From a virus (taxonomy: Duplodnaviria > Caudoviricetes), in the IMG/VR virus record IMGVR_UViG_3300048591_000242, positions 128,001 through 192,000 of that record: a stretch of 64,000 bases of DNA; one strand, given 5' to 3'. The position numbers and the translations under genes were made by a program. Below, piece after piece: positions 22,865 to 41,688 of the stretch; the stretch's first letter is position 1; each line of letters starts with the position of its first letter. The notes beneath the pieces are model-generated. The model had not been told where the DNA came from. It saw nothing but the letters and a program-made list of their open reading frames with translations, and did no database searches.

Positions 22865-23422
22865 GTGACTGATAATCTACCTTACCTTGAGTGTAACACT
22901 GAGCGATACCTAGCCAGCACTATAGCGGCTAAAGATTTATTTATGCATATGCGAAGCATTATGTCCAAGTATGGTACAGTACATGCCGCTATAAACTGTG
23001 GTACCTTTGTGAGTCCAACTGAGTTTATACCGGCGATGACCAATCTTAAAGTACCACAACCATACATAGAAAATCGAAATGGTGCCGGTGTCATGATTTT
23101 GTCTGTATCAGAAGGCTCGTGCATTCATTACGACTATGATCTGTCTAAACGAGTTTTTGTTTTTAATTTGAGTTTCGGAGGTGTAGCCACTGTAGTACAT
23201 ATACCGCCTATTTTAATAGTGGGTCTGTATGTTAAAGACCACCCAGCTACTGTATCTACCATATCTACATACTCACGAGATGAGTTTATTGGGGTAGCCA
23301 ACGGTATGGCAGTTGGTATATGTCCAGATGAGGTCTATAGAAATTTGTTTCTACCGGTACATGAACCTGTAGGTAATGTAGTTAGTATATTCGATAAAAG
23401 CAAGGGTAAGCCGTCTAAGTAG
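22865..23422 (+). CDS. sspB: SspB-like ClpXP adaptor, paralog 2
   Basis: GVMILSV...FVFNLSFGGVATVVHIPPILIVGLYVKD; tail GNVVSIFDK; clear paralog of the previous gene. Confidence 0.65.
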   Translation: MTDNLPYLECNTERYLASTIAAKDLFMHMRSIMSKYGTVHAAINCGTFVSPTEFIPAMTNLKVPQPYIENRNGAGVMILSVSEGSCIHYDYDLSKRVFVFNLSFGGVATVVHIPPILIVGLYVKDHPATVSTISTYSRDEFIGVANGMAVGICPDEVYRNLFLPVHEPVGNVVSIFDKSKGKPSK

Positions 23423-33840: not shown

Positions 33841-36315
33841 ATGGTATACGGCCCATATATAAAGGCCCTATGCCATTTAGCGTTCGCAGACATCCAAGGA
33901 GTTCCCATGGTACGTTATAAGTTCTCGGTATTTTCACATGGATTTACCGTTAGTCTTTTCTATGTAAACGACAAGCAGGCTATCCTTGAGTTTAGTAAAG
34001 ACCTAGCTACATTTGAAGAAATGTGGGTACCCAAGCTACGTAGAAAAATAAGAAAGGTAAAGTCTGTGTTTGCAGCAGCTAGTATGGATAGAATGGAATA
34101 TAGTTTTCTTATAGCTGACTTTGTACCTTTAATAAAATTCTTAAAGGAAAGAGGCTATACCGATGCGGATATGTCTATATATAAACATAACGCCTCAGAG
34201 GGTATGCCTATTGAGATTGAATTGGGGGATGGAGTGGCTCCTAAAGATCAAGAACAAAGAGACGTAGTTGAGTTTATCAATAGTCCAGACAAAACCAATA
34301 TTGTTTTAAATCTAAGAACAGGTGGAGGTAAAGCACAACCTTTAGCTTCTAAGATTAAGATACCGGGTGGTTGGAGTACTATGGGTGAGATGGAAGTAGG
34401 TAAAATTATAACTGCTCCAGACGGTACCCCCACTAAGGTAACCGGTGTACACCCTCAGGGGTTAAAGGGTTGTTATAAATTAACTTTTAGCGACGGTAGA
34501 AGTTGTGAGGCTGACGGGGAACATTTATGGCGAGTATATGTGAAGGGAGAAGAACTTACTATAGATACCGCTGAAGTACATGGCTTGGTAGGTACAGGTA
34601 ACGTACTGACCATACCGCTACCTACATCTGAGCACATATCGGAAGTAGAGTTACCCATGGACCCATATGAGCTAGGAATTGGTTTAGGAGCTATGGATAA
34701 TAACCATAAACTACCTACTGGTATAGTGGATTTAGAGGGATATACTCAGCTAAATGGATTAGCTTATGGCGAATATATCCCTAAACTATATCTACATGCT
34801 TCTACCACACAAAGACTAAATTTAGTACGTGGATTAATGGATGCTTGTGGTCACACTGTAACGGACGGCTCTGTTTACTTTACCTCCAATACCTATACCC
34901 TGGCAAAGAACCTTCAATATTTAGTTAGATCACTAGGAGGTTGTGCTAGCTTAACCACCAATACCACCAACAGGTTTGTAAGAGGGGCTATAAATAGAAC
35001 TAGCTCGAGCTATAGGGTCTATGTAGAGTACCCTATTGTCACTGAGTTATATAGTTGTAATAGAAAGAAAACCAACTGTATGTCTAGAGGCAAATACTTA
35101 AATAAGGTAGAGTGTCGTATAGTGAATGTAGAATACATAGGTAGAAAGGAAACTCAGTGTATCTCTGTAGATCACCCAGACAAGCTTTACATTACTGATG
35201 ACTTTATAGTAACGCATAACACGTTTTTGGGATTAAACTCCATAGCTAACTTTAAAGTACGCACGGCATTGATAATGAATGCCGGGCACTTTAAGACATG
35301 GCAGGATTCCATGTCGTGGGTATACAAGGACGAAAAAAACTACTGTATAGTTAGGGGTAGAGATAATCTTAAACGGCTTATAGAGCTATCTATAGCTGGA
35401 GAAAATGAGTATAAGCTTATCTATATCTCCATAGCTACGCTTAGAAAGTATATTACTGACTATCTAGCCACAGGGGAGACTATAGAGGGGGTACATCCTA
35501 GAGAGTTATTTAGTGTATTAGGGGTAGGTTATCGCATAGTAGATGAGGCACATCAATCTATACATGCGATAGCCATACAAAACATTTTTACTCACGTAAA
35601 CAAAACACTTTACTTATCTGCTACTTTAGTAACGGAAGATCCGTTTCTACAGAAACAGTATAAGAAAATGTTTCCTTTAGAAGATCAGTTTAAGAAAGGA
35701 GTAACTAACAAACACGCTCGAGGTATTAGTATTACCTATAGGGTAAAGGATAGGGATAAGATTCGCTGTACAGGGGGTAAAGGCTATAGTCATGTTGTTT
35801 ATGAACATTGGATTATGTCAAATAAACAAAGACTTAGTAATTACATAGAGATGATAGAAAGTATTTTAACTGAATCATTCATAAGTGTAAGGGAAGGGAA
35901 ACAAAAGGCACTTATCTTCTGCAGCACCACTGAGTTATGTAAGATAGTGGCAGATCAGCTAAGAATAAGTTATGGTGATAGATTTACCATATCAGATTAC
36001 GTAGCCAGTCACGATCCGTCTGTACTACACGACAACGATATAGTGGTATCTACACCACTATCGGCAGGTACTGGTGTAGATATAGAAGACCTAAGAGTAG
36101 CCATATCTACTGTAGCCGTAAGATCCATTCAGCTTAACCAGCAGATGGCCGGGCGATTACGTCCGCTACGTAATCATCCAAATGTAACACCGGATTACAT
36201 CTGGCTAAACTGTGGAGATATACCACAGCACTTGCAGTATAACTCAGCTAAGATGGAGCAGTTAGGAAACCATACCAAAGAGATTAAGTATACCTTTTAT
36301 AACACTGAAATATAA
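33841..36315 (+). CDS. superfamily 2 (UvsW/DEAD-like) helicase, phiKZ gp75-like, containing an intein
   Basis: RTGGGK|T Walker A split by the intein; IVDEAH; LSAT; AGTGVDI; QQMAGRLR. Confidence 0.92.
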   Translation: MVYGPYIKALCHLAFADIQGVPMVRYKFSVFSHGFTVSLFYVNDKQAILEFSKDLATFEEMWVPKLRRKIRKVKSVFAAASMDRMEYSFLIADFVPLIKFLKERGYTDADMSIYKHNASEGMPIEIELGDGVAPKDQEQRDVVEFINSPDKTNIVLNLRTGGGKAQPLASKIKIPGGWSTMGEMEVGKIITAPDGTPTKVTGVHPQGLKGCYKLTFSDGRSCEADGEHLWRVYVKGEELTIDTAEVHGLVGTGNVLTIPLPTSEHISEVELPMDPYELGIGLGAMDNNHKLPTGIVDLEGYTQLNGLAYGEYIPKLYLHASTTQRLNLVRGLMDACGHTVTDGSVYFTSNTYTLAKNLQYLVRSLGGCASLTTNTTNRFVRGAINRTSSSYRVYVEYPIVTELYSCNRKKTNCMSRGKYLNKVECRIVNVEYIGRKETQCISVDHPDKLYITDDFIVTHNTFLGLNSIANFKVRTALIMNAGHFKTWQDSMSWVYKDEKNYCIVRGRDNLKRLIELSIAGENEYKLIYISIATLRKYITDYLATGETIEGVHPRELFSVLGVGYRIVDEAHQSIHAIAIQNIFTHVNKTLYLSATLVTEDPFLQKQYKKMFPLEDQFKKGVTNKHARGISITYRVKDRDKIRCTGGKGYSHVVYEHWIMSNKQRLSNYIEMIESILTESFISVREGKQKALIFCSTTELCKIVADQLRISYGDRFTISDYVASHDPSVLHDNDIVVSTPLSAGTGVDIEDLRVAISTVAVRSIQLNQQMAGRLRPLRNHPNVTPDYIWLNCGDIPQHLQYNSAKMEQLGNHTKEIKYTFYNTEI
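34333..35220 (+). mobile_element. 296-aa intein, class-3 type, with LAGLIDADG-like endonuclease remnant
   Basis: Starts AQPLASK, ends IVTHN before +1 Thr; WCT triad (EHLW, QCIS, VTHN); VRGLMDACG and LAKNLQYLVRSLG. Confidence 0.9.
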
Positions 36316-36319
36316 ACCC

Positions 36320-36355
36320 AGGACTAGGGGATATCCTCTAGTCCTTTTATGCTGT
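36320..36355 (+). terminator. hairpin plus TATGCTGT motif
   Basis: aggactagggg-atat-cctctagtcct, tttt, then tatgctgt. Confidence 0.75.
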
Positions 36356-36372
36356 ATATTGGAGAATTAATT

Positions 36373-37041
36373 ATGATATCAATTTGTTTTAATAATAAGA
36401 TGGTGGCTACAGACTCATTGCACCCAAAAACACCTATAGGGGGTAAAAACTATGGCGCCATATTTACCACGAAATGTGGAAAATTAAACGGCAACAAAAT
36501 AATTGCTGTTGCATGCTGTGGAAATATCGTATTAGCTGGCCAGCTACTATACTCATATTTAGGTGACGTAACGCTGTATAATACACCTGGAAATGAAGAG
36601 GATTTTTCTGTGTGGATCAGTAGAACCTATAAAAGGCTGTTAGGATTTGTCGATAACAGCGAAGTTGTAGTTTTCAGTAAGGGTACAGAAGGTACAGTTA
36701 TACATACTTTTGGCATAAGTAGAAACGGTATATCTACGATTAAGGAAATACCTATGACTGAAGATGATATTGGTGTCTTAGACACATGTATTTATACCTC
36801 TGACGATCTAGACGAATATTGCGATAGTAAAGCCAACGTCAAATTACCAACCAACCCACTGGATAGGATGTGGGTTTATTCTAAATACCACCAGGGTCGT
36901 AATCCTACTATCACATATCTAGAATTTGATACTATGGAACTTAAAACATACTCACCCACACCCGCCATTAAAAGGAAATTAACTAAACTTGCAAAAGATA
37001 CCCTTGAGTTTAGATTAGCTATAATAGAAAATAGAATTTAA
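36373..37041 (+). CDS. hypothetical protein, possibly a degenerate HslV/proteasome-beta (Ntn) fold
   Basis: MISICFNNKMVATDS and IAVACCGN resemble TTI.......AADS and G.AG; no N-terminal Thr. Confidence 0.4.
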   Translation: MISICFNNKMVATDSLHPKTPIGGKNYGAIFTTKCGKLNGNKIIAVACCGNIVLAGQLLYSYLGDVTLYNTPGNEEDFSVWISRTYKRLLGFVDNSEVVVFSKGTEGTVIHTFGISRNGISTIKEIPMTEDDIGVLDTCIYTSDDLDEYCDSKANVKLPTNPLDRMWVYSKYHQGRNPTITYLEFDTMELKTYSPTPAIKRKLTKLAKDTLEFRLAIIENRI

Positions 37042-37197
37042 TCATGTATTGTATTATATGTAAGTTGCCGTGTCTTAAATGCTTTATCGAGTATTTCTAG
37101 CAAACGAGACAATAGCACATAACCCGTTCTATGGCTAGCTTTAGTGCTAGCCATAGACACCCTTTATACCGCTTTTTTATTTTTGGGGAATGCTGTA

Positions 37198-38220
37198 ATG
37201 TATACAGAAATCGTAGCAGAAGAATTAGAATTAGATGCAGCATTGGACTGTTGCTTGGTAAAGTCTAGACTGGTTATGGGGCTAGAGGATATATTTGAAA
37301 GTTTACCTACAGACTGTGACATGGGTAAAACGGTATTGGCTGTGGCGGCAACAAACACTGGCAATACACCCACATATAGTGCAGAAGGTATTTCCGATTT
37401 CCTCGCACAACTGTGGGAGGGGATTAAGAATGTAATGTCTAAGATCTGGGAAAACATTAAGAAATTCGGGGCATGGCTACGTGCTGGCGTGTTAAGATTG
37501 TTTGGTATGTCCAAAAGTATAAAAGAAGAGGCGGATGGTAAACTTGACTTGGTAGGTCAGATAAAAGCGGAACAGTTACAATTTCTTAAAGGGATGGCTG
37601 CTTATGACGATGGTATACGCAATGCAATGAATTTAAGTGAGGGTAGAGTGGGTGCCATTATAGATGCTGTTGATGAATTCAGTAAGAAAGAAATACCTAC
37701 TACAGAAGAAACTATGGCCAATGCCAGGGCTTTTTTGGATGCTAAAAGAGCAGCAAAGGATGCTAAAGCTATTACCGATAAACTGGCCATGGGGGAAATA
37801 GAAGTGACATCCACTAAAGATCCAGAATCTGGGGAAGAGACACTGGTTGGGTTTAATTATGTACCTAACAAACCAGCCAAGGACAGCGATAAGGTTACTA
37901 AAATAACCGGTAAGGATATTTCTAAAATGGCTGGAGAAATATCTAAGACAGAAAGTAAGGTCTTAGATATGACTAAACGATTAACGGACACCAAATGGGC
38001 CGAGGATGCCATTAAGAAAATGGACTCAATGATACGTAGACTGGGTAGTGCGCCGGAAGGTAAAGTAAAACGCTACGTCGCCAGAAAATCCAGAGAACTA
38101 TCTAGGGCCATCCAAACAGAAATAAAGCTCAATAAAATAATAGCCGATGACCTAAAAAAGACACTGGATGCATCCATTAGTGGTTTGGATGGGGCTCTTA
38201 AGTCACTCAGCAACAAATAA
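37198..38220 (+). CDS. virion internal head protein, paralog A
   Basis: Acidic propeptide with LE/SAE cleavage motifs (GLE, YSAEG); W..IK..MSKIW..IKKF. Confidence 0.65.
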   Translation: MYTEIVAEELELDAALDCCLVKSRLVMGLEDIFESLPTDCDMGKTVLAVAATNTGNTPTYSAEGISDFLAQLWEGIKNVMSKIWENIKKFGAWLRAGVLRLFGMSKSIKEEADGKLDLVGQIKAEQLQFLKGMAAYDDGIRNAMNLSEGRVGAIIDAVDEFSKKEIPTTEETMANARAFLDAKRAAKDAKAITDKLAMGEIEVTSTKDPESGEETLVGFNYVPNKPAKDSDKVTKITGKDISKMAGEISKTESKVLDMTKRLTDTKWAEDAIKKMDSMIRRLGSAPEGKVKRYVARKSRELSRAIQTEIKLNKIIADDLKKTLDASISGLDGALKSLSNK

Positions 38221-38251
38221 TAGCCACCAGTAAACTTTGAGGAATGCCGTA

Positions 38252-39256
38252 ATGTATACAGAAGAATTAGAATTAGATGCAGCATTGGATGACTGCATCG
38301 CCAAGGCCAATTTAACTATCGGCCTGGAGAGTGTATTTCCAGATTTACCAGAAAATAGTAAGCTAGGTAGAAAGGTTTTAGAGGTAGCTTCCATGCATAC
38401 CGGCATTACACCTACATATAGTGCTGAGGGTATAGGTGACTTTTTAATTAATGTCTGGGAAGGCATTAAAAATGTAATGTCTAAGATCTGGGAGAGTATT
38501 AAGAAGTTTGCTAAATGGGTAAAAGAGTCCATTGGCAATATGTTTGGCAAAATTGACGATAAAAGAATTGATTCAATAGCCGACAGCGATGTAGTTGTTG
38601 AAGTAGAAGAAGCTGCTGAGTTACCAGATCTTGCTAAACTTAAAAAAATGAATGAAGACGTTCTCTATGAAGGTGACGTTGAAAAGCAAATTGATGCTTT
38701 AGAGAAGGTAGATGAAGATCTTACCGATGACGTAGCTGAAGTAATAGAGGCCGGTACCGCTGAAGTAGATAAAGGTAAGGTAAAAGATCTTAATGAATTC
38801 TTTACTAATAACCAGGTAGTAATTGAATCTACTATTGACCCGCACAGTGGTAAAGAAACCAGAAATGCGGTTACTGTTGTGCCGTTAAACAGAAAAACCA
38901 ATACGGTTAAAATTAAACGTATGAGTGGTAAGGATTTGGCCAAGATGGCTAAGGACACCAAGTCGCTACAAAAGGATGTAGAAGACGCAGTGGAAAATCT
39001 TACCGACACTAAATGGGGTGAAAAGCGTTTAGCCGATTTGGATAAAATCATTAAACGCATCAGTAAGGCGGGTACCTTAAAAGCTAAGAGTGTAGTAAAG
39101 AAACAGGCTATTACTCTTAGCGGTGTAGTGCGGGATAACCTTAAGGTAAAAAGAGCTATGGCTCGTGACCTATTAGAGTCATTAGAGGCCCGTATTAAAA
39201 TAATTGATGGCGCCATTAAGGCTATGGAAGCTGCTGAAAAAGCCGATAAAGAGTAA
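38252..39256 (+). CDS. virion internal head protein, paralog B
   Basis: Near-identical N-terminus to paralog A at both DNA and protein level. Confidence 0.65.
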   Translation: MYTEELELDAALDDCIAKANLTIGLESVFPDLPENSKLGRKVLEVASMHTGITPTYSAEGIGDFLINVWEGIKNVMSKIWESIKKFAKWVKESIGNMFGKIDDKRIDSIADSDVVVEVEEAAELPDLAKLKKMNEDVLYEGDVEKQIDALEKVDEDLTDDVAEVIEAGTAEVDKGKVKDLNEFFTNNQVVIESTIDPHSGKETRNAVTVVPLNRKTNTVKIKRMSGKDLAKMAKDTKSLQKDVEDAVENLTDTKWGEKRLADLDKIIKRISKAGTLKAKSVVKKQAITLSGVVRDNLKVKRAMARDLLESLEARIKIIDGAIKAMEAAEKADKE

Positions 39257-39262
39257 CGCATT

Positions 39263-39751
39263 ATGAAATATATTCCGATTTTTGATGATACTACGGTAGG
39301 TTCTGTATTTGCTGAGCTTTTGGCCTGTCAGAGTGAAGGGGAGACTGAGGCTACTTTAATCTTCAGTGCCCCTGATATGGGTATGTATATAGGTTTGGCC
39401 TTTAGAGACCTTTTATATACCTTTAAGGACACTCTTGCGCTTACGGCGGTAGCCCACATACCCCCTAACCTAAATGAGCTTGTAGCGATTACAGGGTTGC
39501 CTGTAGAGCAGAGAAAGATTACTAAGTCAAATCTAGTAATCTTTGTAAAAGAAACCTGGTTTATCGAAGGCTCTGTTTCTGAGCAGTACATTACTCATTC
39601 AGAAAAGCTTTTAGTAGAAAATAAAATTGTAAAACTAATAAGCGAGTCTTCTAAGCTTACCGAAGAAAACATAAACAACCTAATTAAAGACGGTAAGGTT
39701 GTTCATGCTAAGGATGCTATAGAGGCAGGGTTATTTGGGAGTACTGTATAA
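39263..39751 (+). CDS. degenerate ClpP-like protein lacking the catalytic triad
   Basis: LIFSAP..GMYIGLAFRDLL and ISESSKLTEENI...HAKDAIEAGLFG align with the ClpP scaffold; no Ser/His/Asp motifs. Confidence 0.6.
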   Translation: MKYIPIFDDTTVGSVFAELLACQSEGETEATLIFSAPDMGMYIGLAFRDLLYTFKDTLALTAVAHIPPNLNELVAITGLPVEQRKITKSNLVIFVKETWFIEGSVSEQYITHSEKLLVENKIVKLISESSKLTEENINNLIKDGKVVHAKDAIEAGLFGSTV

Positions 39752-40248
39752 TGGCTACTAAAAGAATACTTTACATTACCGATGACATAGCTTTAGAAAA
39801 CGGCTATGAGGTAATTATAGGTTTGCGTAAGCTAGAGGCAGAAGACCCTATCTCCCCTATAGTTTTGTTTATAAATTCATACGGTGGCAGAGTAGACGTA
39901 TGTCTGGCTATAGTAGACGTTATGAACGATCTGTCGTGTCCTGTATATACCGTGGGATACGGTCAGGTTATGTCAGCAGGTGCCTTTATTTTAGCAAACG
40001 GCTCTAAAGGTAATAGAAGCTTAGCCCCTAATGCCAGAGTACTACTACATCACCCTAACGGCAATAACGTACTGGGAGATACAGACACCGGCATGGCTGT
40101 ATTCTTAGCCTATCGTGATATGGTAGATGTATTAATAGCAGAAGCTTCTGAAAGAAGTATAGAAGAGGTATCTTCTAAGATGTCTACTGACTATTATTTA
40201 TCTGCTACAGAAGCTGTAGAATTTGGTATAGTAGATACTGTTTTATAG
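39751..40248 (+). CDS. clpP: ClpP protease proteolytic subunit
   Basis: INSYGG, VMSAGAF (Ser), LLHHP (His), TDYYLSATEAVEFGIVD (Asp). Confidence 0.93.
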   Translation: MATKRILYITDDIALENGYEVIIGLRKLEAEDPISPIVLFINSYGGRVDVCLAIVDVMNDLSCPVYTVGYGQVMSAGAFILANGSKGNRSLAPNARVLLHHPNGNNVLGDTDTGMAVFLAYRDMVDVLIAEASERSIEEVSSKMSTDYYLSATEAVEFGIVDTVL

Positions 40249-40256
40249 CGTATTAG

Positions 40257-40284
40257 GTATAGTCCTCCATATAGAGGACTATAC
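40257..40284 (+). terminator. stem-loop after clpP
   Basis: gtatagtcctc-catata-gaggactatac plus T run. Confidence 0.8.
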
Positions 40285-40317
40285 TTTTTATGATGTTGTT
40301 TAGGTATTAGTAAAATA

Positions 40318-40967: not shown

Positions 40968-41324
40968 ATGTTTTCTATGATAGATAAAGTATTGAAAAAG
41001 GTCTTAGTACAAATAGGTAATCTTTCAGATAAAGAAGGAGTTAGTCTTACCGAAGGTATACTGATATATCCAGTAATGGGTATATTAGAATGCTGGGTAG
41101 TAGTATACCCAGAAGGACTATGCCATGCGGTTTATAAAGACGGCTACTACGTAGCTACACTTACGATACCCAAGCAGATGATGGGTAGTTGGGATACTTT
41201 ATTAAAGATAGAGCCTTCTGCTGAGCTAGCTATTCTAATGGAAGCCCTTAATGTGTTAGAGGTAGGGATTACTAATGAAGCCATCTTAAATGAACAGATT
41301 AACAAACTAATGAATAAGGAATAA
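40968..41324 (+). CDS. hypothetical protein, paralog of the next gene
   Basis: Shared L.EGIL....YP.GLC....DG.Y..TL motif. Confidence 0.75.
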   Translation: MFSMIDKVLKKVLVQIGNLSDKEGVSLTEGILIYPVMGILECWVVVYPEGLCHAVYKDGYYVATLTIPKQMMGSWDTLLKIEPSAELAILMEALNVLEVGITNEAILNEQINKLMNKE

Positions 41325-41328
41325 GAAA

Positions 41329-41688
41329 ATGGAAACTAAGTTATCTAAACTAAAAGTAATACTGGAAATAGGGGCTACAGGTGAACCCATAGGTGCTATG
41401 CTATCTGAGGGTATACTGGTACGTAAGGTAGAGACAGAGCAAGACACATACATAGCTGCTTATCCAGACGGACTATGTAAGGTAGTCCTACAGGAAGACG
41501 GTCACTACAAAAGTACCCTAGTACTGTCTAAGCCTTTCTCATTCTGCTGGAATACGCATTTCGGTGTAACAGTAGCAGAAGTAGAAAACGATATGGCTGA
41601 CGTACGGTATCTATATACCGGTATAATCTTTAAGTCTGAGATAGGAGACAGACTACGAGAATTAATGGAGTCTAAATATGCAGCATAA
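41329..41688 (+). CDS. hypothetical protein, paralog of the previous gene
   Basis: Shared motif; ends KYAA. Confidence 0.75.
   Translation: METKLSKLKVILEIGATGEPIGAMLSEGILVRKVETEQDTYIAAYPDGLCKVVLQEDGHYKSTLVLSKPFSFCWNTHFGVTVAEVENDMADVRYLYTGIIFKSEIGDRLRELMESKYAA

Follow-up and report, generated by a model that had tools for sequence, protein, structure and literature searches.

The locus described here lies in a 64,000 nt stretch of viral DNA (the window), which corresponds to bases 128001–192000 of a 202,179 bp viral record with direct terminal repeats. At its centre are two adjacent genes, ORF1 and ORF2, whose products are referred to below as subunits A and B (Table 1). The stop codon TAA of ORF1 (39749–39751) shares its last nucleotide with the start codon ATG of ORF2 (39751–39753), so that the junction reads TAATG and the genes overlap by 1 nt, as had been noticed in a first-pass annotation of this DNA. 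From the SD-like site inside the A gene together with the overlap of the two genes, we infer that A and B are co-produced through translational coupling.

Table 1. Features of the ClpP-like gene pair and its surroundings (window coordinates).
Feature	Position	Strand	Description
UvsW-like SF2 helicase, putative LAGLIDADG-like insertion	33841–36315	+	824 aa; conserved directly ahead of the pair in every related locus
Terminator-like hairpin	36320–36345	+	11 bp stem (6 GC pairs) and T-rich tail; probably marks the 5' limit of the transcription unit
230-aa ORF	36349–37041	+	First gene of the putative unit; no Pfam or PHROG match
Internal-head-protein-like paralogue 1	37144–38220	+	Weak Pfam phiKZ_IP match, 16.5 bits
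Internal-head-protein-like paralogue 2	38237–39256	+	Weak Pfam phiKZ_IP match, 16 bits; ends 6 nt before ORF1
ORF1 (subunit A)	39263–39751	+	162 aa; predicted ClpP fold, lacks catalytic triad and N-terminal axial loop
SD-like GGGAG	39737–39741	+	Within the 3' end of ORF1, 9 nt before the ORF2 ATG
ORF2 (subunit B)	39751–40248	+	165 aa; ClpP with Ser75-His100-Asp147 and Gly45-Gly46 motif, lacks N-terminal axial loop
Terminator-like hairpin and T-run	40255–40286	+	13 bp stem followed by TTTTAT, directly 3' of ORF2; probable end of the unit

The two hairpins bracket five genes: the 230-aa ORF, the two internal-head-protein-like paralogues, ORF1 and ORF2. Neither the genome nor any related locus yielded a homologue of the 230-aa ORF, and a three-part system including its product was rejected, because no homologue lies near the pair elsewhere. 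The two paralogues match each other at E = 1e-62 and share the motif TPTYSAE-G. Their 5' ends are duplicated, including an SD sequence and an ATG (M-Y-T-E), which is why the listed GTG/TTG starts of both are probably too far upstream; the real start of paralogue 1 is probably the ATG at about 37198.

The UvsW-like helicase gene is the sole neighbour conserved next to the pair in all loci. Its Pfam matches (DEAD, ResIII, Helicase_C and LAGLIDADG_3) are all weak, while phmmer comparison with the gene upstream of the pair in L005, L008–L011, L013–L015, L018 and L019 gives E values from 0 to 7e-62. The LAGLIDADG_3 match covers residues 325–377. The orthologue in L013 has 507 aa and those of the Vibrio phages have about 460–510 aa, such that about 300 residues of the window helicase are absent from them; this suggests that the window gene carries an intein or homing-endonuclease insertion. 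On the other side of the pair, the adjacent 118- and 119-aa ORFs at 40968–41324 and 41329–41688 both match one and the same L005 ORF downstream of the pair (E = 2e-9 and 4e-11, respectively) and, by sequence, look like a small duplicated family.

ORF2 matches the Pfam CLP_protease family (PF00574; MEROPS S14) with 135.1 bits (E = 3e-39, cut-off 20.2). Against ClpPs in the PDB it scores at E of about 1e-24, with alignments running from ORF2 residue 4–5 and chain residue about 26–29 onwards; for E. coli ClpP (PDB entry 1tyf), residues 26–189 align with ORF2 residues 4–165. This end-to-end alignment with solved ClpPs supports a ClpP fold for ORF2. Its identity to bacterial and phage ClpPs is 31–34%. 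The intact Ser-His-Asp triad originally read from the second protein is found at Ser75 (codon 39973–39975), His100 (40048–40050) and Asp147 (40189–40191). The Gly-Gly motif ahead of the catalytic residues (Gly45-Gly46) is kept, and the triad is retained in all nine aligned ORF2 orthologues. In its sequence, ORF2 looks catalytically competent.

ORF1 is more divergent. Its match to PF00574 is borderline: the protein scores 18.2 bits, and a six-frame search of the genome gives 20.9 bits. In a phmmer search of the PDB, ten of the 11 matches are ClpPs, with a best E value of 4e-4 over the full length. The columns of the catalytic triad are occupied by Asn69, Val95 and Gly144 in the MAFFT alignment and by Pro, Phe and Val in the HMMER alignment as read by eye; neither alignment shows Ser, His or Asp at these columns. 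The full triad is missing from all ten aligned A-family proteins. Asp49 and Arg84, which occupy two columns that are near-invariant across all aligned ClpPs, are kept in A.

The family to which ORF1 belongs was revealed by an exhaustive HMMER search of 1.8 billion representatives. It is small, with members mostly of 162 aa (P0001–P0006 and P0009), and these score 19.6–41.6 bits on PF00574, the homologues P0002, P0004, P0005, P0006 and P0009 lying between 21.8 and 41.6 bits. Searches of a phage collection with ORF1 at the DNA and protein levels gave no matches, a word-indexed protein search returned only a 98% copy, and pattern scans of IMG/VR based on ORF1 and ORF2 yielded no relatives. Comparison of the A-family and B-family profiles by hhalign gives a probability of 97.5% (E = 7e-12) over 141 columns.

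The fold of ORF1 was modelled with AF2. The model obtained from a 14-row alignment has a pLDDT of 91 and a pTM of 0.84, and all of its top matches in the PDB are ClpPs (TMq 0.78–0.84). As six of the 14 rows are true ClpPs, this model is supporting evidence that is not independent of the sequence evidence; from the single sequence the pLDDT is only 48. Helix 112–128 of the model, read by eye, lies at the expected position of the handle. The profile comparison, the PDB match and the model agree with the description given in the first-pass annotation, in which the upstream protein keeps the ClpP scaffold and no triad, and they speak against a fold other than that of ClpP for ORF1. Since Ser, His and Asp are all absent, ORF1 is, judged from its sequence, a pseudo-enzyme of the ClpP fold and not a peptidase.

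The A–B module is conserved in nine sequence-distinct aligned loci, always behind the UvsW-like helicase gene. Where contigs reach far enough downstream to show the family of the next gene, this is an overlapping ClpP (L005, L008, L009, L010/L011 and L013/L014); in the shorter contigs with an ORF1 homologue the overlapping ORF that follows is incomplete. The arrangement recurs in the cultured Vibrio jumbo phages vB_pir03, C-ZP2022, vB_VpaM_sm033 and BONAISHI and in four Yong phages. An A profile made from metagenomic sequences only detects the upstream proteins of BONAISHI, vB_pir03 and Yong, with scores above those of the B proteins of the same phages.

At the A/B junction the genes of the nine loci overlap by 1, 4 or 8 nt or, in one case, are separated by a 2 nt gap, and each of the nine has a GGAG(G)-like motif in the same position ahead of the B start. 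A programmed frameshift generating an ORF1–ORF2 fusion was rejected because of this variation, as the frame relation between the genes is not conserved. Such tight coupling and joint conservation is what a putative hetero-oligomer of A and B predicts. In L014 (2248–2678), a metagenomic relative, two ORFs of 68 and 75 aa take the place of a single active ClpP gene, owing either to an error in sequencing or assembly or to breakage of this copy.

A maximum-likelihood tree places the A family and the B family each on one side of a 98/98 branch. The internal branching of the two subtrees is broadly congruent, which points to long co-inheritance. The A family forms a long branch outside all active ClpPs in this tree, which was built without ClpR sequences, and an origin of A by duplication of B was set aside as not demonstrable on account of this position. 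A 179-aa ClpP with an intact triad and a short N-terminus (P0007, L012:1092–1631; 147 bits on Pfam) is the active ClpP nearest to the dead A family, with E = 2e-6 to ORF1 and 66 bits on the A-family profile, and may represent an intermediate. Its gene ends the 1.7 kb contig, so a partner gene is not visible.

Mean pairwise identity is 23% for A and 33% for B, with A the lower in 35 of 36 pairs. This faster evolution of A, together with the loss of every catalytic residue, would suit a scenario in which ORF1 is a decaying, functionless duplicate and ORF2 acts alone. We regard this as very improbable: an intact A ORF of 162–190 aa is kept in ten lineages at identities down to 11–30% and is always coupled to B, the near-invariant positions Asp49 and Arg84 are retained, and ORF1 is still predicted with confidence to fold as a ClpP.

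Among the best 80 other IMG/VR loci with an ORF2 relative, none has a second ClpP-like ORF within 3 kb, and the ClpP ORFs at these loci are all full-length (189–254 aa). Single, longer ClpP genes occur in Atu_ph07, Phosso, PA5oct and Vibrio phage 2.275.O, and no ClpP was found in phiKZ. From these comparisons, the A–B pair is lineage-specific.

In ClpP, the axial pore is gated by N-terminal loops, which become ordered when they touch the unfoldase; loss or re-ordering of these loops opens the pore. The IGF loops of the unfoldase dock in hydrophobic H sites (PMC9035409). ORF1 and ORF2 both begin at canonical ClpP precursor position about 31–34, at the first core strand, in line with the early observation that the two proteins start there without an axial loop. 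Both lack about 25–30 N-terminal residues, which comprise the axial loop and the greater part of helix A. All aligned A and B orthologues start at the same point of the fold with the same N-terminal shortening, and by the definition of the ORFs no in-frame upstream ATG, GTG or TTG could lengthen either protein. In E. coli ClpP we take the H-site residues to be L48, Y60, Y62, F82, I90, M92, F112, L114 and L189; in one alignment, ORF2 has R, V, F, D, V, Y, S, A and L at these columns. In the same alignment, the columns are variable in the proteins of the pair and often polar or charged. The absent gate and the non-conserved docking positions would fit a protease without the usual docking of an unfoldase.

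Differences are also seen at the columns corresponding to residues 169–170 of E. coli ClpP (the oligomerisation sensor). Canonical ClpPs and the B subunits of the Vibrio phages have an acidic residue followed by Arg. Most A subunits show the reverse order, Lys/Arg followed by Asp/Glu, and B of the window has Ser-Thr. These differences may reflect a changed ring–ring contact or an alignment artefact.

The first-pass annotation had found no ClpX or ClpA gene in the window, and this extends to the genome: PF07724 (AAA_2), PF00004 (AAA) and ClpS have no match in the whole 202,179 bp sequence. Likewise, vB_pir03, BONAISHI and Yong XC31 have no AAA_2 match over the cut-off. An SspB-like signal was seen in a 185-aa protein encoded at 22865–23422 (13.9 and 12 bits, cut-off 27), and the neighbouring 182-aa protein has no Pfam SspB match. 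A phage 'Clp toolkit' with SspB adaptors is not supported by Pfam, the SspB scores of 12–14 bits being below the cut-off of 27.

These results bear on whether the pair could work with an unrecognised unfoldase or adaptor, either of phage origin or a host ATPase bound in a non-canonical manner, as a regulated ATP-dependent protease. To our knowledge, all characterised ClpP/ClpR cores use Hsp100 partners, and the genome contains many unannotated genes among which such a factor, like the faint SspB-like signal, might be sought. We nevertheless consider this very unlikely, though less so than a functionless ORF1. The SspB signal is far below the cut-off, AAA and AAA_2 are without a match in the genome, no third gene apart from the DNA helicase is conserved next to the pair, and both the N-terminal loops and the docking-site positions that an unfoldase would use are absent or not conserved.

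The same lack of a phage unfoldase match would suit subunits that insert into or stack on host ClpP and thereby open, poison or retarget host ClpXP or ClpAP. Stacking of heterologous rings is known for ClpP1/ClpP2 systems, which also appear in the PDB titles among the ORF1 matches, and the predicted handle helix of A would be available for it. Knock-down of host clpP lowered infection by another nucleus-forming phage, an effect that was attributed to motility (PMC11797060). Against such mixing, B shares only about 33% identity with bacterial ClpPs, the subclade of the window shows no conservation at the oligomerisation-sensor positions, and two co-evolving phage subunits are more simply seen as partners of each other. 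On this evidence mixing with host ClpP seems rather unlikely.

The position of the pair in one terminator-bounded unit with two internal-head-protein-like genes raises the possibility of a role in the head. The genome shows phiKZ-like synteny, with homologues of gp178 (virion RNA polymerase β), gp176 and gp175 at genome positions 91639–99175 in the phiKZ order. The homologue of gp175, the head maturation protease of phiKZ (E = 8e-40), is encoded 68 kb from the pair. As this homologue fills the role of head protease, the pair is probably not the head-maturation enzyme, and head maturation was rejected as the main reading. The pair might instead be an auxiliary morphogenetic protease whose substrates are internal head or scaffold-like proteins, either for processing or for degradation, or it might itself be packaged. 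Homologues of the internal-head-protein-like genes are likewise found next to the pair in L005/L006 and L008, and ClpP-like phage proteins carry the PHROG label 'head maturation protease'. The gp175-type protease in its phiKZ-like setting speaks against this, as do the S/A/G-x-E motifs of the internal-head-protein-like genes, which are typical of gp175 cleavage; the motif TPTYSAE-G fits the phiKZ gp175 consensus, which is reportedly S/A/G-x-E. In addition, no such genes lie beside the pair in L009, L010, L013, vB_pir03 and BONAISHI, and most relatives carry the pair downstream of the helicase gene, amid genes for RNA polymerase. We therefore think an auxiliary head role quite improbable. Because the internal-head-protein-like genes flank the pair only in its nearest relatives, a link with head assembly is possible without being a core feature.

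Several known systems resemble the phage pair in part. Cyanobacterial ClpP3/ClpR and plastid or apicoplast ClpP/ClpR likewise consist of a catalytic ClpP co-encoded with a triad-less paralogue of the ClpP fold. Their product is a hetero-oligomeric core, which would be expected by analogy for the phage pair. The phage system differs in its phage-borne genes, in the absence of axial loops from both subunits, in encoding no Hsp100 partner and in its non-conserved docking positions. The initial label 'ClpR-style' holds as an analogy, for a triad-less ClpP-fold protein co-encoded with an active ClpP, and implies no orthology: the best solved matches of A are ordinary bacterial ClpPs, and an origin of A independent of ClpR is therefore likely on present sequence comparisons.

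In the bacterial ClpP1/ClpP2 systems (Mycobacterium, Listeria, Streptomyces, Pseudomonas and Chlamydia) adjacent clpP paralogues also contribute to one particle, and ClpP1/ClpP2 structures are among the top matches of the ORF1 model. There, however, both isoforms keep the triad and the N-terminal loops and dock ClpX or ClpC. The single ClpPs of the large phages Atu_ph07, PA5oct and Vibrio phage 2.275.O share with the pair a phage-borne peptidase of the ClpP serine family with a patchy distribution, and are thought to act on host or phage proteins. These have about 200–250 aa and an N-terminal region, whereas here there are two shortened subunits, one of them dead. N-terminally truncated or ADEP-activated ClpPs, in which the gating loops are lost or re-ordered and the pore is open, form the basis for proposing an open pore in the phage protein. 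In the laboratory this state is engineered or drug-induced; the phage truncation is natural, affects both subunits and removes the whole loop and most of helix A.

The same module is found in BONAISHI as ORF86/ORF87 (GenBank MH595538), where a helicase gene is followed by a ClpP-like protein without a full triad and a ClpP, with a 1 nt overlap. The gene table published for this phage in 2018 names ORF86 and ORF87 as Clp subunits without comment, and the paper contains no discussion of the dead triad, the truncation, the conservation in the clade or the function (PMC6207643). In the literature on a phage ClpP/ClpR pair we found nothing beyond such annotation tables, and the dead partner, the truncation and the conservation are not described in it.

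Taken together, the pair probably represents two subunits of a phage-specific, gate-less ClpP-type peptidase in which ORF2 is catalytic and ORF1 is not, a reading that we hold with moderate confidence. A and B would be made together through translational coupling and would assemble into mixed or stacked heptamer rings, in analogy to ClpP/ClpR and ClpP1/ClpP2. Because the gating loops are absent and the docking positions are not conserved, the axial pore would be open. In the infected cell, the complex would cleave peptides or unfolded proteins with no canonical docking of ClpX or ClpA.

A bolder form of this proposal sees the complex as a permanently open, unfoldase-independent ClpP that one clade of nucleus-forming jumbo phages builds from one live and one dead subunit. 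It would be a natural equivalent of ClpP deregulated by ADEP and would destroy host targets in the cytoplasm. Such targets would be unfolded or nascent host proteins, or factors of defence or cell division. ClpP has been put forward as a possible anti-host peptidase in some jumbo phages (Iyer et al., PMC7824862). We consider the bolder form of the proposal unlikely, if worth keeping in mind.

What is new here is the conservation of the pair as a module across a clade of marine phiKZ-like phages, with broadly matching trees for the two subunits. Normally, its gate and its need for an ATPase keep ClpP safe. If the reading of the pair as a two-subunit phage peptidase is correct, a conserved, gate-less ClpP core with a dead partner would represent a different way of controlling a chambered protease, and the dead subunits might limit or shape its activity. 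Proteolysis would then emerge as a likely tool of nucleus-forming phages against their hosts. As the same module is present in the cultured Vibrio phages BONAISHI, vB_pir03 and Yong, these ideas are accessible to tests at the bench now.
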